A stretch of DNA of 64,000 nt. Source: a virus. The DNA lies in IMG/VR virus record IMGVR_UViG_3300029787_000018, positions 13,140-77,139 of that record; one strand, 5' to 3'. A program made the translations under genes and the position numbers. Positions 18,715 through 33,145 of this stretch are shown here, piece after piece. The notes under the pieces were generated by a model that saw only the letters and a list, made by a program, of their open reading frames with translations, did not search any database and was not told the origin of the DNA. Every line of letters starts with the position of its first letter. Positions within the stretch are counted from its first letter, which is position 1.

Positions 18715-18939
18715 ATGGACTTACAAAAAATGTTTGAAGTGGTCGAAAACACAGACCGTAAAAGATGGGAATTTACCCCAAATGAAGGCGTGAACGAAAC
18801 AAGTTACACAGTAGCCTTTTATGAATGTGATAATGAACCTGATGCGTGGATAGCTTTATATTTAGCAATATCCAAAAAAAACCAAAAGACAGCAAGTAAG
18901 CGAGGTTTAAGCATTTTTTATATGCATTGTTATCAATAG
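18715..18939 (+). CDS. hypothetical protein at the proximal end of the cassette array (possibly degenerate)
   Basis: 74-aa ORF running across the first GTT half-site; an overlapping 25-codon ORF starts at 18660. Confidence 0.4.
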   Translation: MDLQKMFEVVENTDRKRWEFTPNEGVNETSYTVAFYECDNEPDAWIALYLAISKKNQKTASKRGLSIFYMHCYQ

Positions 18940-18968
18940 TTAATGATTAATCACAAACCACAATAGAT

Positions 18969-19238
18969 ATGCCAGATTATAAATTTTTTCCAATGAATGA
19001 GCTACCTGAAAAAAGCGTAGACGACCCAAGTTTTAGCAAGACAGTACTTGTCTATGATAAAACCGATAATAACCACATATTCGAGAACCTTGGCTACTAC
19101 GATTTTGAAGATAGTGAATGGACTCATTTTGGTGATGAAAGTATGAATTTAATATGTTGGTGTTATGTACCTGACCCGAAAAAATTTATAAGCTCGAACG
19201 ATTTAGAAATTGCCTTACATAGAGGTTACCGACCTTAA
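18969..19238 (+). CDS. cassette 1: DUF551-like protein
   Basis: 'ELPE...VLVY...GYY...W...CWCYVP.P' pattern; stop lies inside the cassette's right inverted repeat. Confidence 0.65.
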   Translation: MPDYKFFPMNELPEKSVDDPSFSKTVLVYDKTDNNHIFENLGYYDFEDSEWTHFGDESMNLICWCYVPDPKKFISSNDLEIALHRGYRP

Positions 19239-19242
19239 TTAT

Positions 19243-19363
19243 TGGTAACGTTAAAATGTATGGTGCGTTTTGCACGAACTTAATTAAATATTAAACAACT
19301 TTTGAATTATGGAAAATACAACGCAGAAAATCAACGATAAATGCACTATACATAGTGTTCTTA
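19243..19363. repeat. attC-like site S1
   Basis: TGGTAAC ... ATGTATGGTGCGTTT (19256-70) / AAATGCACTATACAT (19339-53) ... GTTCTTA. Confidence 0.7.
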
Positions 19364-19614
19364 ATAGTGCCGTTGTTTGGGATACTCTCGAAAACTTTGA
19401 TGCAAGCACTACACTTGCTCAACACGCTTTTGTAAGTGTTCAAAGAGGTAAATATTATGAAGATAAGTATGACGGAAACAAGTCTTTATGCGGAAAGATT
19501 GGGGCACACGATGGCGACAAATTCATTGCTTTAAAAGACTTTAACCCTGAAGTATTGAACGAAGAAAAAGCGTGTAAGACCTGCCTTAAAATATATAAAA
19601 AAGGTATTATTTAG
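19309..19614 (+). CDS. cassette 2: hypothetical Cys-containing protein
   Basis: 101 aa; starts inside the S1 loop; SLCG...CKTC. Confidence 0.65.
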   Translation: MENTTQKINDKCTIHSVLNSAVVWDTLENFDASTTLAQHAFVSVQRGKYYEDKYDGNKSLCGKIGAHDGDKFIALKDFNPEVLNEEKACKTCLKIYKKGII

Positions 19615-19663
19615 AACGTTGAGTATAAACCCTCGTTTTAATGGGGTTTATACATTGTTACCC
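19611..19663. repeat. attC-like site S2 (minimal)
   Basis: TTAGAAC gttga GTATAAACCCtCGTT-tt-AATGGGGTTTATAC att GTTACCC. Confidence 0.75.
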
Positions 19664-19709
19664 TTAGTACGGGTTTGAAGAAATAAATTAACTTAAAAAC
19701 AGAAATAAA

Positions 19710-20132
19710 ATGAAAATTGAATTAACAGTAAAAAAGGAATTTGAAGTAAAGACATTATTAGTTGAAGCCAATGTAAGATATTGGGAAGATGCAACTGTAA
19801 ATGGTGTTGAAGACGAAAACGGTGATTTAATACCTTGTAAATTAGGCGACACTTGGAAGCCGATTATTGATTTAGAAACTGGATTAATAACTAATTGGGA
19901 AAAAGGAAAGGAAGCGGATATACATTACAAAGTATGTGATGCAGGTGAATATTGGTTGCAAGATGAAAACGGTGAAAAGATTGTAAAGGCAAAAGGATAT
20001 TATGTACCTGACTTTTTAGCAATTGACGATAGTGGATTGGGCGACTACATTATTATGAAAGTTGACAAAGATGGTAAAATCAACAATTGGCGATTTGATA
20101 GCGAACCATTTACTAACGAAGACGAAGATTAG
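19710..20132 (+). CDS. cassette 3: conserved hypothetical phage protein
   Basis: 140 aa, 'VRYWEDATVNGVED..G.LIPC...W.P.ID...IHYKVCDAG' resembles a widespread phage family. Confidence 0.7.
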   Translation: MKIELTVKKEFEVKTLLVEANVRYWEDATVNGVEDENGDLIPCKLGDTWKPIIDLETGLITNWEKGKEADIHYKVCDAGEYWLQDENGEKIVKAKGYYVPDFLAIDDSGLGDYIIMKVDKDGKINNWRFDSEPFTNEDED

Positions 20133-20138
20133 TATTAA

Positions 20139-20333
20139 GGGTAACGATTAATCTATGATTAGTCGCAGTCTTAAACCTAAACACAATAAATATGGAATAT
20201 AAAAAAATATTAACCGTTGCCGATTTAAGGGATGTTAACGATTCTTATGAGAAGGGTGAAATATTATACTCAAAAATGGTAGAACTTCTAAACAAGCGCA
20301 TATCTGAGCGATTAATTATAGATGTTGTTACCT
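20139..20333. repeat. attC-like site S3 (contains an ORF start)
   Basis: GGGTAAC ... ATCTATGATTAGTCGC (20151-66) / GCGATTAATTATAGAT (20308-23) ... GTTACCT. Confidence 0.7.
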
Positions 20334-20356
20334 ACTGTGGCGATTTAATAAACTAA
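20192..20356 (+). CDS. 54-aa ORF encoded mainly in the S3 loop (MEYKKILTVADLRDVN...RLIIDVVTYCGDLIN)
   Basis: Hand-translated; AT-rich leader; not in the ORF track. Confidence 0.55.
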   Translation: MEYKKILTVADLRDVNDSYEKGEILYSKMVELLNKRISERLIIDVVTYCGDLIN

Positions 20357-20367
20357 AATTTTGATAA

Positions 20368-20616
20368 ATGACTGAAACTAAAAATACATACGAGCCAAAT
20401 GGCACAGAAGAAGAAGTAAAACTTGGTATTTTGCATAATGTAAACGGCTACTGGGTAAGCAACGAGGGAACTAGACAGCAACCAAACTACCACGTATGGA
20501 TACCAAGTGTAACGCACTCGGTTTGCGACAGTGCCTATGCAGAAATAGACCTTGCCGTTTGTAGATGTAATTATTTGGCGAAAAATAAGATTGAGGCACA
20601 TTACCAGCCATTGTAG
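20368..20616 (+). CDS. cassette 4: hypothetical protein
   Basis: 82 aa; TAG stop inside the right inverted repeat. Confidence 0.6.
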   Translation: MTETKNTYEPNGTEEEVKLGILHNVNGYWVSNEGTRQQPNYHVWIPSVTHSVCDSAYAEIDLAVCRCNYLAKNKIEAHYQPL

Positions 20617-20747
20617 GTAACGGCAAAGTATAAGATTTCGGTTGCGTTTAGGCGACTGGCTTAATTAAATGTGCGTTACTCTGATGGTGTAGAAATACCT
20701 CACAGACAATGACAAACTAAGCAACTGAATTTTATACATTGTTACCC
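20615..20747. repeat. attC-like site S4
   Basis: AGGTAAC ... GTATAAGATTTCGGTTGC (20628-45) / GCAACTGAATTTTATAC (20721-37) att GTTACCC. Confidence 0.7.
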
Positions 20748-20796
20748 ACTTTTTAAAAAGCCGTGCGTGAGGTACGAGGGCAAACACATACAGATT

Positions 20797-21492
20797 ATGA
20801 AATACACAGGAAGTAAAAATAGAATTTCAAAATACATATTACCAGTAATGCTTGAAGGTAGAACCAATGAAACTTGGGTTGAGCCTTTTGTTGGTGGTGC
20901 AAATATGATTGATAAAGTTGAAGGAAAAAGAATTGGTTTTGATAATAATGAATATTTAATAGAGCTATACCATTATTTACAAAATGGAGGTTTAATAGTT
21001 AATAGGTTTATAACAAAAGAACAATGGCACAATGTAAAAGAAAATATTGAAAATTACCCAAAATGGTATGTTGGTTTAGTAGGCGTTTTAGGTTCTTATA
21101 ATGGTAATTGGTTTAGTGCTTATGGTGGTGGAAGTAAAACTAAAGAAGGTAATTATAGAAACTACTTTGATGAAGGTATAAGAGGATTATTAAAACAAGA
21201 TTTATCTAATATTCAATTTGTATTTTCTGATTATAAAAATATTAAAATACCAAATAATAGTATTATTTATTGCGACCCGCCATACCAACTAAAAAACAAA
21301 AGATATAAAGAGCATTTTGATAGTGAAGTGTTTTTTGATTGGTTTAGAAATAAAGCAAAAGAAGGACATAAAGTTTTTGTTTCTGAATATAATGCACCAA
21401 AGGATTTTAAATGTATTTGGCAAAAAGAAATAAGTAAAACTAACCCAAAGCAAAAAGTAAACAAAATAGAAAAATTATTTACGATTGAGTAA
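20797..21492 (+). CDS. cassette 5: Dam-like (D12 class) N6-adenine DNA methyltransferase
   Basis: KYTGSK, VEPFVGG (motif I), YCDPPY (motif IV), VSEY; likely ATG at 20797. Confidence 0.85.
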   Translation: MKYTGSKNRISKYILPVMLEGRTNETWVEPFVGGANMIDKVEGKRIGFDNNEYLIELYHYLQNGGLIVNRFITKEQWHNVKENIENYPKWYVGLVGVLGSYNGNWFSAYGGGSKTKEGNYRNYFDEGIRGLLKQDLSNIQFVFSDYKNIKIPNNSIIYCDPPYQLKNKRYKEHFDSEVFFDWFRNKAKEGHKVFVSEYNAPKDFKCIWQKEISKTNPKQKVNKIEKLFTIE

Positions 21493-21579
21493 GCCGTAAA
21501 GATTGGCGGCTTTTTACATTGTGGGTAACAATTCGCTATGAGTACTACAGCATCACATAACTAACTAAAAATCAATAGT

Positions 21580-21799: not shown

Positions 21800-21876
21800 A
21801 CCAACTGACAAATAATCTTTGACAGTTGGTGTAATTAAGTATTTCAACTACTCGAAAATATAGAGTAGTTCTTTTT
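21800..21876. terminator. paired hairpins at the convergence of the two genome arms
   Basis: ACCAACTGaCAAA/TTTGaCAGTTGGT (21800-30) and AACTACTC/GAGTAGTT followed by CTTTTT (21846-76). Confidence 0.6.
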
Positions 21877-24800
21877 AAAAAATAGACTCTACCATTGATT
21901 TAGTTGTTCTTACTGCAGAAGGTATAAGCTTGTATTCGATCTTATCCAAATCCATGTAGTAATTGGCATCCCAATAAGCACTCTCTGCAAACCTATTATC
22001 GGTGCTCAATGCAAATCCCCCAATAAGTCCTGACATTGCCAGACCTTTTAGCCCACTATCAAGTCGTTTGGCTAGCTCAGGACTTTCTTTTTGAAGCTTT
22101 TTACGATATTCTATATAATCTTTCGGATTCATGCTTTGAACCTCTGAAACCGTCTTAAAAAGCATTCTTAGCGAACCGATATGTTCGTTACCATAAATAT
22201 CTATATCCTGTTTCGCGAATCTATCGTTTACAACAGTAGGTAAGAATCTTGAAAACTGCAACATCATTCTACCTAAGCTATATTGCTGAATCAATCTTTG
22301 ATCAGTAGCTTGATACCCTTTCCCTTGTGATTTCTTCACCTCGTTCTCCAACATGATCAACCTTTGTTGATCAATAGGCTCTTCCATAGGTTTATACTCC
22401 CCGTTCTCGTCAAACTTGTTCCATTCGGCTTCGGTAAGCATACCCGCCATCTGAACACCTTGAATCCATTTCTCGCTCCACGTCATTGGCATAAGTGCCA
22501 AATCGCCCAAGAAATTATCAAGTCTCCCTTTTGAGGACATAGATACGTTATCGTATACATTGATATCCATAAAGTTCAACGTCTTTAGAATCTTCTGTGT
22601 TCTTTTCATTCGTTTTACAATATCAAATGGATTGGTCGTACTGGTATCCATACCCCAAAAACGGCTTTCTCCTTTTGCCCATTCTTTTACAGAACCGTTT
22701 TTAATGTTATGGTACTTACCAGAGGCTACGTTACCCATGAAATAACTAGCGTTAAAACCTAACTGCCAAAATAGGTTCATCTTAGTCAATAGGTCTACAA
22801 CCTTATCTCCTTTTTCACCTAATAGGTTTTGTCGCTTGCCTTTTAAGTAGTAATCTTTCCAGTTCATTTTTACGTACTTACCGGCATTCTTTAAACCTTT
22901 GTCCTGGTTCAATGCAAGGACACCATCTACAACAGCTTGCATGCTCTTGAATCCTGCAAAGTTTTCATTACCGTTAACGAACAACGTAGAATGAACATAG
23001 CTGTTAAGCGCATGGTTTAAATCCATAGAAGGCATTTCGGTAGCTTTATTACTACGTGTATTGGCAAATCGGTTCATAATACCGAAAGACAATGCAGAAT
23101 CCATTTCAAAATCGGAAACTTCAATATCCGAACCGTCTTCATTTTTGCCGCTTTTTAAGAGCTTCTTAGCCTTGTTCTTTAAAAGAATGTAGTCTTTAAT
23201 CTGCTTGGCATTATTCTTAGTGCTGGCCGACATAGCAGAGTATATGTTATCGATATCCTTAAAGCTAACAAGCTCTTTTTTGCCAGTGTCCGGATTATCG
23301 ATATATAGCATTACTTCGTTTAAGGCGTCATCGCTATTTTTCGTAGATTGGAGCAACCCGAGAAGTCCTCTATTTGAAAAAGATTCAAATGTGCCCATAG
23401 AGGTGTGAGGTATATAGCCTCTCCTGACTCTTTTACCGTCTGAGGTAGAAGAAGGGGCAAGTTCTCCGGTAATGTCAGTGAAAGTTTTGTAGAAGTTGTA
23501 TTCGGCTTCGGATAATCTGCCTTGCTCTTTAAGTTTGTTGATTTCTTCATTGCTTTTTAGTTTGAATTCTTTAATGACCTTACCCTCGGAAACAATCTCG
23601 TTCTCTTCTACAAGATTACCGTAAAGTATGTTGTAAAGGTCTTTTCTGTTGTGAATATAACTATAATAGAAACGTTTTAAAATATCTATAGGGTTACCGC
23701 TATCGAACATGAAACCGAACTTCTCTTTGTAAAGTGCGTTCGTAGTTTCGTTGATCCTGGTAACGTATTTTTTCTTTTCGTTCTGAAACTGTTTCTCCAT
23801 AGCTGTCATATTCCTTACCATACCTTGTATCTCTGGATGATTGGAAGGAATATTGTTAGCCATTAACCAAGTTTGTACAGGACCAAGGTCTTCATTGGTT
23901 TTTGTACGTCCTGTCAACTTTGTTTGTTGAGCGGATATCTTTGCCGCCAACGCCTTTACTATAGGTGTGGTAATATTGGCATACGCATAGGCATTTTTGG
24001 AACCGTACGTTCTATATAGTTCCATAAGCTTTTCGGGGCTGAACTGATTAAAGTCCTTACCCCTGAAGCTTTTGTTATATATTTCGTTGGCTCTCTTTTT
24101 TTCCTTTACGTATTCCTGATAAGCCTGGTTCTTGGATTCCTCTGTTTGAAACTTGTTGAACTCCATGGCATCGTTGAACGTCTGCTTGTCCATAAAGTCC
24201 TGTGACTTGTAATCCCAGAACTCTTCACGAGCTTCCATGCCTATCGGCTCAGCTTTTTTTTTAACACGTGGAACAGGATTGTTGGAACTAGAAGTAATGG
24301 TAACTAAATCTATATCCAATTGGTTGTTCGTGCGTCTAGGAACTTTTTTTATCATTTTTGTAGCGTTCTTGGCTAAATGATTAAGTCTGTTCAACGTGTT
24401 TGAAATAGGCTTGTTGAATACTTCGGACTTGTTTCCTATAAACTTGTAAAGGTTCATATTGCCCTTGGCATCCCTTGACTTGAAGTAGAACTGTGTATTG
24501 TTCTCCAACGCTGCTCTGAACTGTGGGTTCTTTTGCATTTCTATCATAGCCTTTTCAGGTGATAGCCCTTTAATGTCAAAGAAAGGAATATTGTTACGTA
24601 CACCATTGATATCTTTAAGCATCAATATTTCTTCCAATTCCCTAAGCTCTGGACGCGTATAGGTTTTATCGTTTTTCTCCTTGAAATCTTGGTTAAGGTT
24701 CTCTACCAACATTTTGTTCGTGAACGAGTCGGTAATAGGCAACATGGACAAAGGACTTCCCCAACCGTTTTTGGTAAGGTCATAATAAACAAGTTTATAT

Positions 24801-27800
24801 TGCAAGTCTGCAGGAAGTTCCGAAAACTCTTTGTTCATTCTACGTACCTCTTGGGTAGTAAGGCTTTCATCAAAGAAACTACTGTTCATAGAAATATAAG
24901 GCTTGTTTCCATCGAACTTCATATTAAGCCCTTGCGTAAGCAATAGATTGTTTTCAAGATTGCCTTCCATCTTAAGCCCGGCTATATATTCCGATAAATC
25001 TGCAAATACGCTGTTTTCATTTTTAGGATCAACTATTTCGGCCAACTCTTCTTTGGACATATTGTTATATCCCGAAATATTGGAATGTAGGAACTTTGAA
25101 ATACTTCTGGTATACTTCTTAATCTGGTTGTCGTTCAACAGTTCCATGCCTTGCTTAACGGCCAAGCCTTGTAGCAACTTGGTAATAGCGGGTCTATAAA
25201 CCAAATCTATTTGTTTGGTATGTTCCAATGTAGCTTCTGCAGTATTCAAATACCTTTTTAAATCTGGATTACTAGCCATTTCTGCAGGTATGTTCATCGT
25301 AGAATCCTCATTGTTCATAATACGCTTGAACTCTCCTATCTGCTTTTCCAACAAATATGGGTTGGTTTCAATACCGTTATGACCAGCCATAATCTTACTG
25401 ACCTTTTGAATGTCGGCATTGACTTCATCCATTTTCATTATTAGGTTAATAATGTTGGACTGGTTTTTCTGGCTATAGAACTCTTTGTTATTGGTATTGG
25501 TAACTACGCCACCTGTAGAATTGGAATCATATTTTACGGTACCGTTATTACCATTGGAAACAGACCTTTTAGCTAATTCTGTCAACATTTGCTTTCTAGG
25601 GGTGTAACCGTGGAACGCAGAATTGTTTTCGTTCATTATCGAAACATATTCTTTTACCATTGGAGCGTTCATCATAACGGCTACATCTTCAATAGGAATG
25701 TTGAGGTTGACCATTAAGGTAAAAGCCGATACCGTATGTTCGTTTATATTCAATGCATCCGCTGCATTTTCGTTAAGGTTGTCCAGAATAAGGTTGGCTA
25801 CCAATGCAGATTTATGGTTACGGCTTTGATCACCTTCTCCCATATCCTCGAATATCTGGTAATTGGTATTGTTTACCATTATACCTTCTTTCATATTGGC
25901 TCTGTACGCGGCAAGCGTATTGGCAATTCTATGCAAGTTGAAAACGGTACCGATATTCCTTTTGGCGATCATGGAATCCTCATAGGACTTTCTTCTGTAC
26001 GATGGAGAAAATGCCAATGGCTGTTCTTTTACATAGTTAGGGAACTGCTCTTTGATATGTTCCTTTAACTTTTTACCTTCTCCGGAAGTGTCCATTGCCG
26101 TTTGAATGAACGGTGCCATTTTTTCACTAAGCCATAGCTTTTCCATACGGTCTATGACTTCGTTCATTTTTTTGTTTTTTCCTTTATGTTGGATGAACAA
26201 GGCATCACCATCTAAATCCGCACCTATTGTCTTACTGAAAGAAGTAGGTACCTGTACTTGGTTTCCTTTACCAACGGCAAACTCAACAGCTTCGAATATA
26301 CCTGTAAAGTTTGGTCCGTTTGAAGGAACACGAGTGGCTATTACCGTTTCCCCAGGAACATAATAACCGATTACCTTACCGTCTTTAAGAACGGTCTGTG
26401 TTTCAAGTTTTGGCGTTGTTTTATCCCTATTTTTATTAAGGTGTGCTACAAACTTGTCCGCAGCTTCTTTTAAACGCATAAGGTCGTTTTCTTGCGGTGT
26501 TTTGGTCTTGTCAAGATAACCGTTCGTATCAGTGGCTTTGATAGCCATTTCGCCTAATTTACTATCAGGTGTATAGTATTTTCTGGCTCTTACCTTTCCA
26601 TTTAAATGTTGGGGCAATACAATCTCCGCCCTATTAAGTCCTGTAGAAGCTTGCGTATAACCGTTAAGCTCATTACTTCCTTTTATTTCTCCATCAACAG
26701 GCAATTCCCATCCATAACTAGACTTCTGGTGCGCATACGTACCAGCTATTCTTAACTTGTTACCTTTTGACTTTAAAGTGTTCGCTAATTGATTGGAAAC
26801 GATCTCTATTGCTCTAGGGTGTAGTATACCATATTTTTCGATAACGAACCTTTGGACTTGATCCATGTCCTCTTTGTTCATTTCCTTGGTAACTATTTTA
26901 TTATATGTAGCAACATCTTTCTTTTTAAGTTCATTGGTAACCTCGTTAAGGTTTTCGGACATCATATCCGATATCAGTTCTTGTATCGCTTCGGCTTCTT
27001 CAAGATGCCCAAGATTTAAAGAATGAACTAATAGCGAGTTCATTTGCTGTACAGGTAACGTTACTTCATCGGTAACTTTATCCATTACTTGTTGTGGTCC
27101 AAAGTTGTAACCACTGATACCCATAAAACCACCTTTGGAATCATACATGATGTTGTCTTGGAACTCACCCGCTTTGGTAACTCCCTCTTCGTTCATAAGC
27201 TCGTTTAAGTATGGTGCATTCTCCATACCCTTGCCTTTTTGAATTCCCGTTTTCTCAGAAGAAAAAGGAATTGCTATCGGAAAGTAGTTCTCTAGACCAT
27301 CGGTAAAGTTATCACTAGGCATTGCACCATTGTTCTTTTTAGCGTATGCATCGAACATTTTAGCACGTCTGGCTTTCATATGTTCGTATAATCCTTTGAA
27401 CTTGTAGTTCTGATCAACAAAATCTTGGTCGATTATAGTAGTATATCCTTTAAGCAATACGGTGTTACCTCTAAAGTTCGGGTTGTCTTTTTCTACAGAG
27501 TAGTTAAGGAACTTGAAACCTTCATTCAAATCAAATACACCTTTACCAACATTAGCCCAGCGCTCAGCATCTTCTCTAAGTATGAACATACCACCATCGG
27601 TAGAAGCTTCATTATCTTTAGGGTCTTTAAAGAATATAGGCTCAAACTTTAAGTTCTTGTTTACGGATATAACAGGACTACCGGCATTCTTTAAACGCTT
27701 GGCAATACTTGATATCTTAATGTTAGGAGATACTACCTCAGCCATGAACAGACCGTTCATAATTTGATTGTATACATATCCTTTTACAATTTTTTCTCCT

Positions 27801-30800
27801 TTAGGATTAAGCTTTCCGTTTTTATCGAACATAGATTTTAAAGAATCTATCTTCATAAGTTCCTTGCCGTTTTTATTAAAGAAATCAACTTCTTTTTCTC
27901 CTTCTTTAATCAACGATAAGTTAAACTGACGTTTACTTATATTTTCCTCAGATATATTTCTGTAAATATTATAAGCCGCAGTAGTAGTATCGTTGGACAT
28001 ATCAAGCCTTTTAGTAGGCATGTAATACTTTCTAGGACTATCACCGAAAACACCGACGTTCGCCAAATATGTTTTTTTGTTAAGTCCGGAAGCGTACATC
28101 ATAAAGTCCTCAAAGGACTGTTCGTATGAAGTACTGTCCTCAAATGCATTGGCATTGTTGCTTACGCTATCATCGATACCGGTATAGTAAACAAGGTCTG
28201 GTTTGTTTCCAGCTACTACACTATCATAGAAATTGTCCAAAAATTGATTAGGAACGGGTTTGCTGTACGCTTTTGAACGAGTGATATGAGAATACCTTTT
28301 TATAAAATCGGCTTTAGGAATCACGTCACCGTCCTTATTAGGGCGTAATGAATCGTACATCTGGTCAAGCTCTTTGGTCATGTGGTTGTTCATCATACGA
28401 ACAGGAACCATATTTCCTTTGGCATTCTCTACAACACTATCTTGGGTAAACTCCCTATTAGTAGCCATAATAGCATTGGCAATAGGTCTAAAGTTATAAG
28501 GGTACATATACCTGTTACCGTTCTTGGCGGGTTTACCTAAATGCTTGTCGTTATCGATAAAGCTTTTAAGAACTGTTACAGGGCTATAGTAAGTACCTTT
28601 TACGTTGATAAAACCATTTTCCAATATATCCATCATTTTTACGTCAGGAGGTGCCATAAATCGATATGCCTTTACGTAATCTTCATTAGTAGCAGTATCG
28701 TCTTTTATTCTAGCTACGATACCCTCGAACTCCGACCATTGATCACCTAATAAATGACCGCTCTTTTTAAGCATGTAATCTCTGGCTTTAGCCATATTGT
28801 CCATCATGTCTTGTGCTTGGCTCTGCTCTCTTTTAGATAAAGATTCTTCAATAGAGTGGTTTATTTTGCCATCGTTCTCCGACATAACGGACTTAACGGC
28901 ATTTACCATTCTATAGTTGGAGAACAGCGTCCATGTAGAATTCAAAAGAACGGTTTTGGCTTCCGGTGCACGTAGTTCCAAAAATTTGTTGAATGCTTGG
29001 ATATCCGCATGAGGACTGTTTTCAAGTGCGTCTATAAAATCAACGGAGTTGTTTGTATTGGCAGCCAATTGGAACATCTTGTACCTAAACTCTTTCTTAT
29101 CGAATAAAGGACCTTGCTTGCCCCATATGCTTTTTCTAAGCCTAATGGCACGATTGTACTCTTTTACAAAGTTGTTGATTATTTTGGTAGCCTTAGCTGT
29201 TCTGGTCATAAAGCTTTTTTCCGCTATACTGATAACGTTATCGGCATCCTCTTGGTTGTCCGCAACCTCATCTAGTATCTGGTCTAAAGCATCCTCTTTT
29301 CTAGTGAACAAGTTCTTGTTCTCTTCCGGGTCAAAATTGGCAACTTCTTCTTCAAGCCTGCTCTTGACCTTTACCCTACGTTGCATGATGTTTGCATCGT
29401 AAGCTGTGGAGCGAGATTCAAAACCTATTTCGGTAGCTTCTATTCTAGGTACTTCTTTAAGGAACTCCATAACGATGTAATCCCTCATATTATCAATTGA
29501 AAGATCTTGGCCGTCGTTAAGCTTTTGAATAAGCTCTTGGCTTTCCTGTAAGTAAGTAGGTTCAGATTTAGCCTTGGTATCTATCATCTTCCACCACTTA
29601 CGGGTAGTATTGGTTCTTTTAGCTTCTGTACTAAGACCAAAGAAATTATTGTACTTTTTAGAAAGAGGACCTTGCATAGTAGCTACAAAGGCTTCTTCCA
29701 GAATGTATTTCTGCTCGGCCAAAGGTAAAATAGATGCTCCGTACTCAACTAGGTCTTCCTCGGTAGGTTTACCTGAGAACGTTCCTACTTCTTTACTTTC
29801 ACCAACACCAAAATTATATAGAACATAATCTGGATATCTTTCAGCTATTTCATTTACAAGCTTTTTGTTTGCCATGACCTGTTCCAGGACCGCTTTGGTT
29901 TCTGGTCTGTCCTTTGCGAATCTGTAGAAGATGTGTGTCATTTCGTGCATGAACACTTCGCCTTGGTTCCATTCATCGCTACGAACGAATACTGCTGCAG
30001 AAACAGCAAGTCCGGTACCTCGTATACCCAACGCTTTTACAAGGTCGTCAAGTATGTATGCATTTACCCTACTATCAGCTTTAGGGAACATAAAGTTCAA
30101 ACGCTGATTAATGGCAACCATTTTATCAAGGTCGCTAGGACTGTTACGTATACGTCCTATAATAGGAGCTTCGGCTCTGTTCTCTTCAAGAGGTTCGTTG
30201 TTCTCCTCAAAGGTTACGAACTCGTCGGCTTCATTTTGTTCAGATAACTCTGAATTTGATTCAGCTAATTCATCGCCTCTTGATTCCATAAAAGGACCAA
30301 CTCCTTTTTTATAAGCATCTATAGCACTACTAAGTTTCTTTTTGATCTTAGTAGCCTGGCTTTTGATTTGCTTCTTTGTTTTGTTAACCTGCTTTGGCTC
30401 GGCTTGCTTGTTAACAAAGTTCTGGAACTGCTTGGATTTATCCTTGGCGGTTTCTTTTACCTTGTCAAAAGTATCGTTGAATTTGTCTACTATTTCCTGC
30501 TCTTTGGGAGTCAACGATTTTTGACCTTTTATTTTAGCTACGATATCATCGTACGTCTTTTTTGCTAAACCTTTAGGTAATGCTTTATTAGCTTTAGCCT
30601 TAGCTTTTTCTGCTAGTTCTGAAATACGTTTCTTAACCTCTTTGGCACGTTGCTCTCTTTTAGAAGCATCTTCCTTAGATTCTTTTTTCTTGGGCTTACT
30701 AAGTGTTTCGGACTCTTCTTCCAAATCACTAAGCTCATTTAATTCATCCTCTGTAATATCATCTGAAACCTCACCCGTTACATCATCTGATTCTACACTA

Positions 30801-33145
30801 TCGTTTTCCCCATTTTCTTCTCCCTGAACGTCTCCGGCAGTAGCACCATCGATTTCATTATCGCCATCTGTTCCTTGTCCAGTAGGTGACGTAGGTGGTA
30901 CACCTTCGCCATCTTCTCGTTGGGATTCAGTTTCTTCGGTGGTTGCAACTTCCTCGGTGGTTTCTGATTCTTCTGATACATCATCTTTGTTTTTATTAAA
31001 TAGATTGTCGAAAAGGCTTTTAGCTTTATTTCCTAGTTCCGATATTTTGCCAATGGCTTTCTTGCCTATATTGGCACCGTCGTACTCCGCATTATCTTTA
31101 AGGACTTCTGCTTGGTTGTTCTTTTTAAGAATATCCTCGTTCGATTTTTGTACAAAGTATTTGTAGTCGGCTTTGGCAAGTCCCGTAGCTATAATATCCT
31201 GACCTCTTTCGTTTTTAACCTGTATAGGTTCTACAACGTTCTCAACAGCCTTACCTAGAATAAGGTTGGCTTTGTTCGCTTGCGCTTGGGCTATACCATA
31301 AGTAAGACCCTGAATCGTTTTATCTGTTTCAGCAGTACGCTCATTGATTTCCGATTCTATTTGTTGTTCTGTAAGATTACTATTTACTAATATTTCAATA
31401 ACATTTTCAAGTTTTGATTTTTCTACCTCAACCTGTTCTTGAAAGAACATTTCGGCACTATGGTTCAAGAACAACGCATGCTTACCTCTAATGTTAAGCT
31501 GTTCGGCTTGGTTATCGAGTACCATGTAATCATCGATATCTTCTTGCATTTTTTGAGCTTCTTCCTCAGTAATAATACCTTCTTTGATAAGGTTCTGTGA
31601 ATAGCTCTCGAACATTTCCGTTTTGTCCTGTAGCACCATATCCGATATGGTTTCACGCATATGGAACTTCTGCATTTCATTGCCTTTTTCATCGGCACTA
31701 TCAAAAATAGTTTTAAGGTTCTCCGTTCGGTTGTATAATTGTCTTGAACGCTCGGCATCCTTATTGATGCCCGATACTATACCAGATACACCGCCACCAA
31801 GGGCACCTAATGCAAATGCAATGGTTTTCGTTCCTTCGTTCTCTTCACTGTTATAGAACTCCATGAAACTACCGTATTCTGGTTCTGTACCCATTACGTC
31901 GCTTTCAGCCATCATAGCCGCCCAGCTTTCATAAGTCTCTTGGAAAGTTTCTTCGTAACCTTCCTGTAAAGCTTTACCCGATGCACTTACCAATTTTCTT
32001 AAAGTAGGTGAAGTCTTTGCCGTAAAAGCCTTGGATATATTTTTAAAATTCTTGCTTGAATCAAAAGCCTGTTTACCTTTCTTGATAAGATTGGACTGCT
32101 TTAATATCTTTCCGGCATTACCGTAGGTCATACCCCATGAAAGAATATCAACAGCCATATACTTTAGGTTGTTACTAAATGTTTTCGCTGCAATATCGGA
32201 TAGTTCATCATTGGTAAACAAAGGGTTTCCGTTTTCGTCGGTAAGTTCTTTTCTTGAATTGTATGCTTCTGCAGAATTCAATAGACCGGAGATAACGTTA
32301 CTTGCCATACCACCTGCAATATTCTCAACAGCGGCTCCTGCAGTATTGGTAAGTTTCCCTAAATCGGTAACAGCTTTTCCTATACCTTTTCCCGTACCAG
32401 CAACTTCCATTACTTCGTCAGCTCCACTAGCAAGTTTCTTGGAACCGTTTTTAAGTGTTCCCTTGGCATTTTTGATAAGACCTTTTTTAAGGGCTTTTCC
32501 AGCTAATGCATTACTACCTCTTTTTGCCAATGCTCCCGCACCTTTAGAAAGGAATATAAACTCTGCTAATTGTGGAATATACTCGGCACCATGTTTAGAC
32601 CAGAATTGAGGGTCGGCCAAGGTTTTGATAGAGAACTCGGGGTTTTTAAGTTCCTCTGGCATGTACACTTGGTTGTTCTCTGAAATGCCTTCTCCTTTTT
32701 CCTGTAGGAATCTTGAAATTACGTTACCGTCGAACATATCTATACCCGGAACGGCAGAACCTACTACTTGTGCTACGTCGCCAAATCCACCGATAACGTG
32801 ATCACCTATACCACGCATAAAGGAAACTCCCGCTTCGGTAACCCAATCCCTACCACTTACATCGGCACCAACGGAATTTTCTCCCGCTTCTGGTTCGTAC
32901 TGTTGCTTTGCACCTAACGGGTCGTTCTTGGATTGAACGGCACTACCTATAGACGCTTGTCTTTCTTGGGCGTTTGGAAATACGGCTTTCGGCTGTTCAG
33001 GTTCTTTAGCAGTTGGTTGTTTCGGATCGGTATTCTCTTGACCTTTCTCGGTTTGGTAATCAGGGTTGTTCTCTTCCGCTTGGGTACCCTCTTCTTCAAC
33101 TCCTTGCTTTTGTAAGGAGCTGATGTAATTTTTAAAATTTGGCAT
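21875..33145 (-). CDS. virion-packaged double-psi-barrel RNA polymerase polyprotein (crAss-like) with zincin-like HExxH region
   Basis: 3756 aa. ATRVP..G followed by GADLDGD (DLDGD at 26204-26218), upstream STDGG and LKG motifs, HEMTH at 29933-29947. Positioned after the ejection proteins. Confidence 0.8.
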   Translation of the reverse strand: MPNFKNYISSLQKQGVEEEGTQAEENNPDYQTEKGQENTDPKQPTAKEPEQPKAVFPNAQERQASIGSAVQSKNDPLGAKQQYEPEAGENSVGADVSGRDWVTEAGVSFMRGIGDHVIGGFGDVAQVVGSAVPGIDMFDGNVISRFLQEKGEGISENNQVYMPEELKNPEFSIKTLADPQFWSKHGAEYIPQLAEFIFLSKGAGALAKRGSNALAGKALKKGLIKNAKGTLKNGSKKLASGADEVMEVAGTGKGIGKAVTDLGKLTNTAGAAVENIAGGMASNVISGLLNSAEAYNSRKELTDENGNPLFTNDELSDIAAKTFSNNLKYMAVDILSWGMTYGNAGKILKQSNLIKKGKQAFDSSKNFKNISKAFTAKTSPTLRKLVSASGKALQEGYEETFQETYESWAAMMAESDVMGTEPEYGSFMEFYNSEENEGTKTIAFALGALGGGVSGIVSGINKDAERSRQLYNRTENLKTIFDSADEKGNEMQKFHMRETISDMVLQDKTEMFESYSQNLIKEGIITEEEAQKMQEDIDDYMVLDNQAEQLNIRGKHALFLNHSAEMFFQEQVEVEKSKLENVIEILVNSNLTEQQIESEINERTAETDKTIQGLTYGIAQAQANKANLILGKAVENVVEPIQVKNERGQDIIATGLAKADYKYFVQKSNEDILKKNNQAEVLKDNAEYDGANIGKKAIGKISELGNKAKSLFDNLFNKNKDDVSEESETTEEVATTEETESQREDGEGVPPTSPTGQGTDGDNEIDGATAGDVQGEENGENDSVESDDVTGEVSDDITEDELNELSDLEEESETLSKPKKKESKEDASKREQRAKEVKKRISELAEKAKAKANKALPKGLAKKTYDDIVAKIKGQKSLTPKEQEIVDKFNDTFDKVKETAKDKSKQFQNFVNKQAEPKQVNKTKKQIKSQATKIKKKLSSAIDAYKKGVGPFMESRGDELAESNSELSEQNEADEFVTFEENNEPLEENRAEAPIIGRIRNSPSDLDKMVAINQRLNFMFPKADSRVNAYILDDLVKALGIRGTGLAVSAAVFVRSDEWNQGEVFMHEMTHIFYRFAKDRPETKAVLEQVMANKKLVNEIAERYPDYVLYNFGVGESKEVGTFSGKPTEEDLVEYGASILPLAEQKYILEEAFVATMQGPLSKKYNNFFGLSTEAKRTNTTRKWWKMIDTKAKSEPTYLQESQELIQKLNDGQDLSIDNMRDYIVMEFLKEVPRIEATEIGFESRSTAYDANIMQRRVKVKSRLEEEVANFDPEENKNLFTRKEDALDQILDEVADNQEDADNVISIAEKSFMTRTAKATKIINNFVKEYNRAIRLRKSIWGKQGPLFDKKEFRYKMFQLAANTNNSVDFIDALENSPHADIQAFNKFLELRAPEAKTVLLNSTWTLFSNYRMVNAVKSVMSENDGKINHSIEESLSKREQSQAQDMMDNMAKARDYMLKKSGHLLGDQWSEFEGIVARIKDDTATNEDYVKAYRFMAPPDVKMMDILENGFINVKGTYYSPVTVLKSFIDNDKHLGKPAKNGNRYMYPYNFRPIANAIMATNREFTQDSVVENAKGNMVPVRMMNNHMTKELDQMYDSLRPNKDGDVIPKADFIKRYSHITRSKAYSKPVPNQFLDNFYDSVVAGNKPDLVYYTGIDDSVSNNANAFEDSTSYEQSFEDFMMYASGLNKKTYLANVGVFGDSPRKYYMPTKRLDMSNDTTTAAYNIYRNISEENISKRQFNLSLIKEGEKEVDFFNKNGKELMKIDSLKSMFDKNGKLNPKGEKIVKGYVYNQIMNGLFMAEVVSPNIKISSIAKRLKNAGSPVISVNKNLKFEPIFFKDPKDNEASTDGGMFILREDAERWANVGKGVFDLNEGFKFLNYSVEKDNPNFRGNTVLLKGYTTIIDQDFVDQNYKFKGLYEHMKARRAKMFDAYAKKNNGAMPSDNFTDGLENYFPIAIPFSSEKTGIQKGKGMENAPYLNELMNEEGVTKAGEFQDNIMYDSKGGFMGISGYNFGPQQVMDKVTDEVTLPVQQMNSLLVHSLNLGHLEEAEAIQELISDMMSENLNEVTNELKKKDVATYNKIVTKEMNKEDMDQVQRFVIEKYGILHPRAIEIVSNQLANTLKSKGNKLRIAGTYAHQKSSYGWELPVDGEIKGSNELNGYTQASTGLNRAEIVLPQHLNGKVRARKYYTPDSKLGEMAIKATDTNGYLDKTKTPQENDLMRLKEAADKFVAHLNKNRDKTTPKLETQTVLKDGKVIGYYVPGETVIATRVPSNGPNFTGIFEAVEFAVGKGNQVQVPTSFSKTIGADLDGDALFIQHKGKNKKMNEVIDRMEKLWLSEKMAPFIQTAMDTSGEGKKLKEHIKEQFPNYVKEQPLAFSPSYRRKSYEDSMIAKRNIGTVFNLHRIANTLAAYRANMKEGIMVNNTNYQIFEDMGEGDQSRNHKSALVANLILDNLNENAADALNINEHTVSAFTLMVNLNIPIEDVAVMMNAPMVKEYVSIMNENNSAFHGYTPRKQMLTELAKRSVSNGNNGTVKYDSNSTGGVVTNTNNKEFYSQKNQSNIINLIMKMDEVNADIQKVSKIMAGHNGIETNPYLLEKQIGEFKRIMNNEDSTMNIPAEMASNPDLKRYLNTAEATLEHTKQIDLVYRPAITKLLQGLAVKQGMELLNDNQIKKYTRSISKFLHSNISGYNNMSKEELAEIVDPKNENSVFADLSEYIAGLKMEGNLENNLLLTQGLNMKFDGNKPYISMNSSFFDESLTTQEVRRMNKEFSELPADLQYKLVYYDLTKNGWGSPLSMLPITDSFTNKMLVENLNQDFKEKNDKTYTRPELRELEEILMLKDINGVRNNIPFFDIKGLSPEKAMIEMQKNPQFRAALENNTQFYFKSRDAKGNMNLYKFIGNKSEVFNKPISNTLNRLNHLAKNATKMIKKVPRRTNNQLDIDLVTITSSSNNPVPRVKKKAEPIGMEAREEFWDYKSQDFMDKQTFNDAMEFNKFQTEESKNQAYQEYVKEKKRANEIYNKSFRGKDFNQFSPEKLMELYRTYGSKNAYAYANITTPIVKALAAKISAQQTKLTGRTKTNEDLGPVQTWLMANNIPSNHPEIQGMVRNMTAMEKQFQNEKKKYVTRINETTNALYKEKFGFMFDSGNPIDILKRFYYSYIHNRKDLYNILYGNLVEENEIVSEGKVIKEFKLKSNEEINKLKEQGRLSEAEYNFYKTFTDITGELAPSSTSDGKRVRRGYIPHTSMGTFESFSNRGLLGLLQSTKNSDDALNEVMLYIDNPDTGKKELVSFKDIDNIYSAMSASTKNNAKQIKDYILLKNKAKKLLKSGKNEDGSDIEVSDFEMDSALSFGIMNRFANTRSNKATEMPSMDLNHALNSYVHSTLFVNGNENFAGFKSMQAVVDGVLALNQDKGLKNAGKYVKMNWKDYYLKGKRQNLLGEKGDKVVDLLTKMNLFWQLGFNASYFMGNVASGKYHNIKNGSVKEWAKGESRFWGMDTSTTNPFDIVKRMKRTQKILKTLNFMDINVYDNVSMSSKGRLDNFLGDLALMPMTWSEKWIQGVQMAGMLTEAEWNKFDENGEYKPMEEPIDQQRLIMLENEVKKSQGKGYQATDQRLIQQYSLGRMMLQFSRFLPTVVNDRFAKQDIDIYGNEHIGSLRMLFKTVSEVQSMNPKDYIEYRKKLQKESPELAKRLDSGLKGLAMSGLIGGFALSTDNRFAESAYWDANYYMDLDKIEYKLIPSAVRTTKSMVESIF

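Follow-up and report, generated by a model that had tools for sequence, protein, structure and literature searches.

Strand-asymmetric stem sites around small gene cassettes in a phage genome and their likeness to integron attC sites

Organization of the locus

The window analysed here is a stretch of 64,000 nt from the virus record IMGVR_UViG_3300029787_000018 (IMG/VR). Between 18.9 and 21.5 kb it contains a block of small ORFs. Each of them stands between inverted repeats whose core reads GTTACC (or GTTATC) on the left side and GGTAAC on the right. Between these flanking cores lie stems of the form GGTAAC...GTTACC, either local or long-range. The features of the block are as follows.

18917-18943, + strand: right half-site (ATAT-GCATT-GTTATC) together with the left arm of cassette 1 (18929-18943; paired to 19235-19249 by 13 Watson-Crick and 2 G.T)
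18969-19238, + strand: ORF of cassette 1, 89 aa, without known family
19235-19262, + strand: right arm of cassette 1 and left half-site (GGTAAC-GTTAAAATG-TAT)
19309-19614, + strand: ORF of 101 aa, situated between a left half-site and the next full site
19615-19662, + strand: compact site S1b (AAC-GTTGAG-TATAAACCC, loop TCGTTTTAAT, GGGGTTTATA-CATT-GTTACC)
19654-20148, + strand: cassette 2, arms 19654-19670 and 20132-20148 (15 Watson-Crick, 2 G.T), ORF 19710-20132 (140 aa)
20140-20332, + strand: long-range site S2, arms 20140-20166 and 20308-20332 (21 Watson-Crick, 3 G.T), with the start of ORF 20192-20356 inside
20327-20621, + strand: cassette 3, arms 20327-20341 and 20607-20621, ORF 20368-20616 (82 aa, phrog_20712)
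20613-20749, + strand: site S3, with a conserved interior of 110 nt (20627-20744)
20738-21532, + strand: cassette 4, arms 20738-20763 and 21507-21532, D12-class N6-adenine DNA methyltransferase (ATG at 20797, to 21492)
21523-21579, + strand: terminal left half-site (GGGTAAC-AATTCGC-TAT), without partner arm

Read in their own polarity, the sites consist of 5' GGTAAC, a spacer of 6-9 nt, a TATA box, a variable hairpin, a second TATA box, a spacer of 4 nt and GTTACC 3'. The triplets AAC (5') and GTT (3') stand in imperfect inverted repeats in all window sites and in 22 homologous sites. Core variants in the window are GGGTAAC, AGGTAAC and TGGTAAC on one side, GTTACCC and GTTACCT on the other. 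An earlier reading of the DNA letters without database searches (the sequence-only reading) had placed the arm pairs correctly. It had also found the AAC-TAT spacer always longer than the ATA-GTT spacer by 2-3 nt, and this holds (6-8 versus 4-6 nt). It had assigned single extrahelical T bases to left arms; an unpaired T is seen on the 5' arm of S3 and of the chromosomal repeats described below, but not at every site.

The loop of S1b recurs in a site of Polaribacter phage P12002L (P12002L_attC1) and in sites of G003, L154 and L172. Site S2 folds with -34.0 kcal/mol on the + strand versus -19.9 on the - strand, and S3 with -41.3 kcal/mol (z = -3.9) versus -31.5 (z = -2.4). The interior of S3 is 85% identical to a stretch of Cellulophaga phage Ingeline, the only match in the scan for this element. 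Cassette 4 is 86% identical to the methylase cassette of P12002L over the first ~190 nt.

Next to the genes, the pairing of the cores is prolonged across each gene by private arms of 15-35 bp. Cognate arms are complementary at 12.9 of 22 positions on average versus 10.1 for non-cognate arms (p = 5e-8, n = 26), and compensatory changes are seen in the gene-flanking arms of the homologous pair of methylase cassettes. Hairpin loops are conserved in sequence while their stems covary (CGTTTTAATG, GAGGTACGA, GACGATAGGA). A scan of 17-23 kb against Rfam (E <= 1) returned no family, and a tRNA scan of the window returned no hit.

Strand asymmetry of the stems

The arms were compared by local alignment, with one equal penalty whatever the mismatch. 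Over eight arm pairs of the window this gave 134 Watson-Crick pairs, 9 G.T, 1 A.C and 9 transversion mismatches. The sequence-only reading had counted 13 G.T and no A.C. The direction of its claim stands and its exact counts do not: the weak stem ends are trimmed by local alignment, which leaves 9 G.T, and the one A.C pair (A20615 x C20747) lies just beyond the core, where the two flanks come from different cassettes. The stems themselves contain no A.C. With RNAduplex, each stem of the nine arm pairs has 2-5 G.U when formed by the + strand and 0-3 when formed by the - strand; the summed energies are -215 and -168 kcal/mol, respectively.

The window alone is statistically weak (p = 0.02; 6:1 in a stricter core-anchored set). 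Other viral contigs supplied 33 arm pairs, with 59 G.T versus 8 A.C on the gene-sense strand (p = 1e-10). GC skew is positive on the + strand of the block, and base composition leads one to expect about 1.1 G.T per A.C (arithmetic from the skews). The asymmetry is thus real and is confirmed outside the window.

Selection on one folded strand, as the same reading had proposed, is supported by folding both strands of the homologous sites with RNA and DNA parameters. Of these 22 sites, 21 fold better on the wobble-rich strand with the former and all 22 with the latter; the mean energies for the two strands are -26.3 versus -19.1 (RNA) and -11.7 versus -9.5 (DNA). When the sites were chosen in a strand-symmetric way, the better-folding strand was the polarity strand in 21 of 24.

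Four bacterial contigs (L198, L289, L241 and L254) separate the polarity of the site from the direction of the genes. In them the strand with the polarity of the site is antisense to the genes, and it carries 13 G.T versus 2 A.C. The wobble goes with the site and not with the gene or its transcript, which argues against a mutation bias linked to transcription and against a purely mRNA role. One G.T pair occupies the identical position in independent sites, namely S3 of the window, G003, L147 and the repeats of G006. Strand asymmetry of this kind offers a simple means, using sequence only, of telling which strand is the functional one.

Cassette exchange and phage P12002L

Single cassettes of the window were found in four other metagenomes, in other contexts. 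Cassette 1 occurs singly there, with homology stopping at 19250/19251; cassette 2 is a separate module in run X3 (19648-20146); and cassette 3 has its junctions at 20326 and 20622. Altogether, homology ends directly after GGTAACG (19250/1, 20146, 20622) or beside GTTACC (20326, 20730). An exact 14-mer scan gave mostly chance matches, and one public run labelled RNA-Seq is probably DNA.

Phages P12002L and P12002S, 99.8% identical in the flanks, differ by one cassette indel and one cassette replacement; two of the junctions fall at AAC(G) and one at the TAT box. In P12002L a terminal site of 70 nt is duplicated, and the exact match of the copies begins at AAC. The exchange of cassettes takes place in DNA, and most junctions fall at the AAC core. 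A second array of P12002L has the cores GCCTAAC/GTTAGGC in an unchanged architecture. Two relatives of the phage backbone (giant ORF with 50% identity) lack a GTTACC/GGTAAC array at the corresponding position, and so offer no comparison with an empty site.

P12002L_attC1 has the architecture as well as the loop of the window sites. In the site attC-aadA7, the strand with spacers of 6 versus 5 is taken here to be the bottom strand. The site attC-aadA7 is the control of a study in which a CALIN was reported in the virulent phage P12002L (Qi et al. 2023, PMC9892861; Table S3). A P12002L site was predicted there as attC by HattCI. The integrase IntI1 recombined P12002L_attC2, one of the two strands of which gave zero recombinants, and P12002L_attC1, the published site closest to those of the window, also gave zero recombinants with IntI1 (PMC9892861). 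In P12002L, the position that matches the terminal half-site of the window carries the site recombined by IntI1.

A chromosomal array and the orientation of the sites

Contig C8 of G006 (Flavobacteriaceae) contains 16-18 near-identical repeats of ~125 nt at 191.7-271.8 kb (~80 kb). They have the cores, the spacers, the G.T position and the extra T on the 5' arm in common with the window sites. S3 fits their pattern, GGTAAC-G-N6-(C/T)ATAA ... TTAT(G/A)-CATT-GTTACC, with G.T in the CGTTGC/GCAATG stem and the extra T on the 5' arm. The window sites and this integron-like chromosomal array are therefore homologous in design. The array starts ~7 kb from a recombinase gene (387 aa), whose product scores 218 bits with NF040815 ('tyrosine recombinase/integron integrase') and 211 bits with TIGR02249; both scores are below the curated cut-offs, and the profile match leaves out model positions 180-240.

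All G006 repeats have a single polarity and nearly all ORFs lie on the opposite strand. Counted over the homologous sites, genes lie opposite the folding strand at 6/6 bacterial sites (five contigs) and on the folding strand at 16/16 viral sites. Two further suggestions of the earlier reading agree with these data. The attC-like character that it saw extends to core, spacers, G.T and 5'-arm bulge shared with the G006 repeats, and to the HattCI-predicted P12002L site, which is alike. The geometry that it called inverted relative to the genes is that of the viral sites, the G006 array and four other bacterial contigs having it the other way round. It is the strand asymmetry that reveals this consistent inversion between phage and bacterial copies.

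Recombinase genes

The complete 77-kb phage record gave zero matches to PF00589, PF00239 and PF01797 (tyrosine, serine and Y1/HUH recombinases), and no recombinase of these three kinds was found in P12002L. The window phage encodes an exonuclease and helicases. With no integrase in the 77-kb record, the region is a CALIN at most. The sole phage recombinase found to adjoin an array, a small Xer-like protein of 264 aa, is that of G002. It gained no support as the enzyme of the arrays: four viral relatives of it are without an array, and only L300 has one S-like hairpin, ~0.9 kb upstream.

Interpretation

The stems are probably attC-type recombination sites of a Flavobacteriaceae or Bacteroidota kind, mounted backwards with respect to the genes, and the region an integrase-less CALIN in a tailed marine phage. 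Sites of this kind would mark the genes as swappable cassettes. As in integron attC sites and CALINs, imperfect inverted repeats AAC...GTT enclose two boxes, unequal spacers and a variable terminal hairpin (54-138 nt); one strand folds better; the sites stand in tandem, one per small gene, with methyltransferase cargo; and cassettes occur singly in other genomes, joined at the core. Unlike integrons, the viral sites have their ORFs on the folding strand (integron ORFs lie opposite) and private arms beyond the core, the phage cores GGGTAAC/GTTACCC miss the consensus RYYYAAC/GTTRRRY, some phage sites contain an ORF or the 110-nt conserved non-coding element, and an integrase was not found in the phage. 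Counting against the attC reading are the core sequences, the failure to find a recombinase in the phage or in P12002L, the sub-threshold scores of the G006 recombinase, the array-free relatives of the G002 recombinase and the negative outcome of IntI1 on P12002L_attC1.

The polarity strand alone holds the stems closed by means of G.T pairs, which turn into A.C mismatches in its complement. This is what would be expected if one folded single strand is at work, as is the bottom strand of integron attC. A tyrosine recombinase may cut the folded strand at the AAC core, candidates being an integron-integrase-like enzyme of the host or a small Xer-like one as encoded by some phages. Excision and insertion of single cassettes could then move accessory genes, e.g. 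for methyltransferases, between unrelated phages. The folding strand is the mRNA strand in phages and antisense in bacteria. The attP site of CTX phage with XerCD, and the end hairpins of IS200/IS605, work as a single folded strand of DNA that contains mismatches and bulges, and a host enzyme can serve a mobile element that encodes none. The window sites may be likened to them; those, however, are single sites or element ends, and the window holds cassette arrays.

As a tentative extension, phages of Flavobacteriaceae may mount the host-type attC backwards in such a way that one strand is both messenger and recombining strand. The hairpins might insulate or process cistrons and also fold on the lagging-strand template for a host integron-integrase-like or small phage Xer-like enzyme. 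The outcome would be a phage-specific swapping system, with the integrase acting in trans, by which unrelated virulent phages trade anti-defence genes in the course of infection.

Shuffling as at the PeSL motifs of T4-type phages is a rather unlikely explanation. It would hold that the sites are conserved intergenic motifs at which general phage or host recombination acts on short homologies or hairpin bases, without a dedicated site-specific recombinase, the asymmetry coming from attC ancestry or another cause. In T4-type phages, recombination between promoter/stem-loop cassettes shuffles ORFs and yields mini-circles; these short conserved stem-loop motifs likewise surround small accessory ORFs in a plastic region, and related phages differ there by whole ORFs (PMC2839356, PMC4122927). 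Junctions after AACG, at TAT and beside GTTACC fit such a process, as do the encoded exonuclease and helicases and the absence of the three recombinase families searched. The junctions are spread over more than one nucleotide, some at the TAT box and some at the right core, which is a point against the attC reading and fits short-homology recombination too. The shared stretches, however, are just 4-13 nt, and asymmetry, unequal spacers and a G.T conserved across very distant phages and bacteria would be unexpected if only double-stranded homology counted. In addition, one site of the array type is a substrate of IntI1 (PMC9892861). PeSLs are direct repeats with a sigma-70 promoter and a terminator that act by homologous recombination, whereas the window sites are palindromes with spacers of different length and an asymmetry between the strands, and they agree with the repeats of the integron-like chromosomal array. 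By eye, the sites gave no match to the Bacteroidota -33/-7 promoter consensus.

It is quite unlikely that the stems serve only in mRNA, as RNase III type processing sites, terminators or stabilisers of polycistronic messages, with DNA mosaicism as a by-product. RNase III stems of phage and rRNA polycistronic transcripts lie between and around cistrons on the sense strand and tolerate G.U. The wobble-rich strand is the sense strand at all viral sites, which together with the gene-flanking arms is a point against a purely recombinational role that an RNA-level one could explain. G.U is cheap in RNA and the strand gap is larger with RNA than with DNA energies; the compensatory changes in the arms, the conserved loops on covarying stems and the failure to find a recombinase in the phage agree as well. 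Against this, sites of the window type, unlike RNase III stems, also occur with the wobble-rich strand antisense to genes, at six sites on five bacterial contigs and in the 80-kb array. The cassette junctions fall at the cores, the G006 array of the same site type adjoins an integrase-like gene, and Rfam gave no match.

A G.T surplus without selection, from strand-biased mutation (e.g. C-to-T on an exposed strand) of decaying palindromes, would suit the positive GC skew of the block's + strand but is highly improbable, as composition predicts about 1.1:1 against the 59:8 observed, the bias reverses with site polarity and not with gene direction in bacterial contigs, and the G.T position is kept among S3, G003, L147 and the G006 repeats.

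Two further candidates were rejected. The compact site is present in just 2/401 Flavobacteriaceae genomes searched, a finding that speaks against a housekeeping motif or terminator of the host. A promoter in hairpin or single-stranded form, serving a virion RNA polymerase of N4 or crAss type, was considered on the ground that the RNA polymerase of phi14:2 uses single-stranded DNA as its template and that no early promoter motif is known for it. This reading was abandoned because the siphovirus P12002L and bacterial chromosomes have the same sites, and because the giant ORFs of the window phage are without the motif DFDxD.

Distribution and significance

One site design joins an 80-kb chromosomal array of Flavobacteriaceae, scattered chromosomal cassettes (Cellulophaga and others) and phage cassette arrays. 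Integrons are usually seen as bacterial devices, and few have been found in Bacteroidota by standard tools. Should a recombinase of host or phage act on the sites described here, virulent phages would have a dedicated trade in accessory genes such as those for DNA methyltransferases, with consequences for phage mosaicism and for the arms race against host defences. Phages with such arrays are Polaribacter phages P12002L and P12002S, Cellulophaga phage phi13:2, the window phage and several uncultured ones, which are unrelated and have the same hosts. Weak partial BLAST matches were obtained for Cellulophaga phages phi19:3 and phi10:1 and for Tenacibaculum JQ.

Cassette region of the phage

The record is complete (77 kb) and the window covers its bases 13140-77139. 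The phage is tailed: its - strand encodes terminase, portal and structural proteins, its + strand a primase, helicases and an exonuclease. The cassette region forms the tail end of the + strand block and contains seven small ORFs and a D12-class adenine methyltransferase, with structured spacers in between. Four ORFs each lie between inverted repeats (C arms), of which the left one carries GTTACC or GTTATC and the right one GGTAAC:

18969-19238, + strand, C-arm-flanked ORF 1
19710-20132, + strand, C-arm-flanked ORF 2
20368-20616, + strand, C-arm-flanked ORF 3
20797-21492, + strand, C-arm-flanked ORF 4

The structured sites between ORFs (S sites) read on the + strand GGTAAC, a 6-9 nt spacer, TAT(A), a variable middle, (T)ATA, a 4-6 nt spacer and GTTACC. 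The middle is of one of these types:

19615-19662, short hairpin type
20627-20744, conserved 110-nt non-coding element
third type, a stretch containing an ORF

It is rather likely that these are folded single-strand recombination sites of the attC type, of the kind found in Flavobacteriaceae, together forming a CALIN (an attC cluster without integrase). The - strand holds an ORF of 3756 aa (21875-33145), in which a quick check found neither a Pfam match nor a DFDxD motif.

Strand asymmetry of the arms

For nine arm pairs, RNAduplex predicted 2-5 G.U in each + strand stem and 0-3 in each - strand stem, with summed energies of -215 vs -168 kcal/mol. Because folding programs favour G.U pairs, left arms were also aligned with the reverse complement of right arms, all mismatches being penalised equally. 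Eight arm pairs yielded 134 Watson-Crick pairs, 9 G.T, 1 A.C and 9 transversion mismatches; the sole A.C lies outside the core, at flanks from different cassettes. The G.T:A.C ratio expected from regional skews is about 1.1 by our own arithmetic. The + strand excess of G.T claimed in the sequence-only reading is borne out, its 13:0 being a more generous hand count, and so are the unequal spacer lengths and an unpaired T in a 5' arm. The asymmetry in the window is confirmed, though the window alone lends it little statistical weight.

Occurrence in other phages and in bacteria

Homologues were sought by pattern scans and BLAST. The same site architecture recurs in the two Polaribacter phages P12002L and P12002S, in Cellulophaga phage phi13:2 and in some ten contigs of uncultured viruses; BLAST matches that are weak and partial (E 0.07-0.9) hint at it in Tenacibaculum phage JQ and in the Cellulophaga phages phi19:3 and phi10:1. 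Across 33 arm pairs of viral loci outside the window, 59 G.T vs 8 A.C were counted on the gene-sense strand (p = 1e-10). Among 22 compact or long sites, the polarity strand (the one with the longer 5' spacer, rich in G.T) folded better in 21 with RNA parameters and in all 22 with DNA parameters; when either strand passing the threshold sufficed for inclusion, 21/24 sites favoured it. The proposed preference for folding of one strand therefore extends to the larger set, in which the two strands do not fold equally well. Complementarity is higher between the two arms of one gene than between arms of different cassettes (12.9 vs 10.1 of 22 positions, p = 5e-8, n = 26). The methylase cassettes of P12002L and the window, which are homologous, have compensating changes in their arms.

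Scanning bacterial genomes revealed these sites also in Cellulophaga tyrosinoxydans, in a Mariniflexile contig and in three metagenome-assembled genomes, beside genes for a DUF1016 nuclease, M23 peptidase, glyoxalase and alpha/beta hydrolase, which are typical integron cargo. In C. tyrosinoxydans (NZ_FWXO01000008, ~8.7-10.2 kb), the M23 peptidase and glyoxalase cassettes are bounded by these sites. A further repeated motif, GAAAATCC(T)CGC ... CCCGCAAC, adjoins the two cassettes; contig L198 has it too.

Among the bacterial genomes with such sites is G006, a Flavobacteriaceae metagenome-assembled genome, whose 360-kb contig C8 has 16-18 near-identical repeats of ~125 nt, of the form GGTAAC-GGTCTTG-CATAA ... 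TTATG-CATT-GTTACC. They keep a single polarity over an 80-kb array (191.7-271.8 kb), and nearly all ORFs lie opposite the repeat strand (51.9 kb vs 7.1 kb). In their cores, spacer lengths, G.T of the CGTTGC/GCAATG stem and extra 5'-arm T, the repeats agree with window site S3. By its layout the array resembles a chromosomal integron of the sedentary type, one whose cores are non-canonical. No description of Flavobacteriaceae integrons was found in the literature searched, and IntegronFinder 2.0 lists only one complete integron for Bacteroidetes.

Orientation of the sites relative to genes

The sites are asymmetric and can therefore be oriented without reference to genes. Flanking ORFs lie on the long-5'-spacer, wobble-bearing strand at 16/16 viral sites and on the opposite strand at 6/6 sites of bacterial contigs (Fisher p = 1.3e-5), and likewise in the G006 array; the suggestion of an inverted geometry thus holds for phages, whose arrangement is the reverse of the bacterial, integron-like one. 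In integrons, recombination of the folded bottom strand fixes cassette orientation relative to the promoter (integron reviews; PMC8876359).

The same hairpins may act in mRNA, additionally or instead, a role that would fit the phage inversion and the long arms. In the bacterial contigs, however, the polarity strand has 13 G.T to 2 A.C and the gene-sense strand 2 to 13. The wobbles follow site polarity, so the asymmetry is a property of the site, not of the transcript, which makes a pure mRNA explanation less likely, and a transcription-linked mutation bias as well. That the G.T asymmetry marks the functional strand is part of the best-supported reading, that of attC-type sites.

Cassette exchange

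Single window cassettes occur in other contexts in contigs of four other metagenomes (four studies). Homology or unitigs end directly 3' of GGTAACG (19250/1, 20146, 20622), directly 5' of TGTTACC (20326) and directly 5' of TTATACATTGTTACC (19648, 20730). Two runs match the arms and initial codons of the methylase cassette (20730-20802; 21487/21507 onward) but have a different gene body in between. The flanks of P12002L and P12002S are 99.6-100% identical; the phages differ by a 1.1-kb insertion and a replacement (2.0 vs 2.4 kb), with junctions at a TAT box once and at AAC(G) twice. P12002L also has two copies of a 70-nt terminal site whose exact match starts at AAC, preceded by GGGT vs GCCT.

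Integron crossover takes place inside the AAC of the 5' core on the folding strand. Most junctions are compatible with a crossover there. Since some do not, recombination by short homology is a possible alternative origin of cassette junctions.

Both Polaribacter phages are cultured; with flanks 99.8% identical, they differ only by whole cassettes, with junctions at attC-type sites. One carries Mom-like and methyltransferase genes, and the other has two different methyltransferases and small ORFs. The pair is a ready experimental system.

A CALIN was predicted in P12002L with HattCI and Infernal (Qi et al. 2023, PMC9892861). Its attC1, located in a second array of P12002L, has the architecture and CGTTTTAATG loop of window site S1b; the array cores are canonical (GCTAAC, GCCTAAC, GTTAGGC). 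In a conjugation assay attC2 was recombined by IntI1, one of its two strands giving no recombinants, and attC1 gave none with IntI1 (PMC9892861). Three features are new compared with published phage CALINs: cores of the non-canonical type GGTAAC/GTTACC, private arms of 15-35 bp that span each gene, and the systematic inversion in phages.

Candidate recombinases

No tyrosine, serine or Y1 recombinase was detectable in the complete 77-kb record or in P12002L. A host enzyme acting in trans may serve the window cassettes. A tyrosine recombinase of 387 aa lies ~7 kb from the start of the G006 array, with which it falls within 184-272 kb. Its best NCBIfam match is 'site-specific tyrosine recombinase/integron integrase' (218 bits, cut-off 220); 'integron integrase' matches in two pieces (211 bits, cut-off 265). 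The related phage contig G002 has a Xer/integron-integrase-like gene (264 aa, 31% identity to the G006 enzyme) directly downstream of its cassette array (L086 6830-7712; G002:C1 ~9.9-10.8 kb), and the two may form a complete phage-borne integron-like unit. None of four relatives of this gene in other viral contigs has an array, and only one (L300) has an S-like hairpin, a single one ~0.9 kb upstream. A CGTTTTAATG-loop hairpin and a TATCATATATCAAC motif lie upstream of the G002 gene; the motif recurs upstream of relatives.

Conserved elements within sites and leaders

The 110-nt element inside S3 (20627-20744) folds well on the + strand (z = -3.9), and has no Rfam match; an attC-type site may here carry a small phage RNA as its 'loop'. 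In Cellulophaga phage Ingeline an unannotated spacer, not surrounded by GGTAAC/GTTACC cores, matches the element at 85% identity. One wastewater run contains an identical copy of a 123-nt piece (20609-20731).

Hairpins with conserved GAGGTACGA or GACGATAGGA loops, covarying stems and G.T on the same strand sit within sites or in the leader sequences 5' of cassette genes; they occur both in phages and in a Saprospiraceae genome:

window 20766-20790
P12002L locus L002, ~2950 and ~3800
loci L013 and L232
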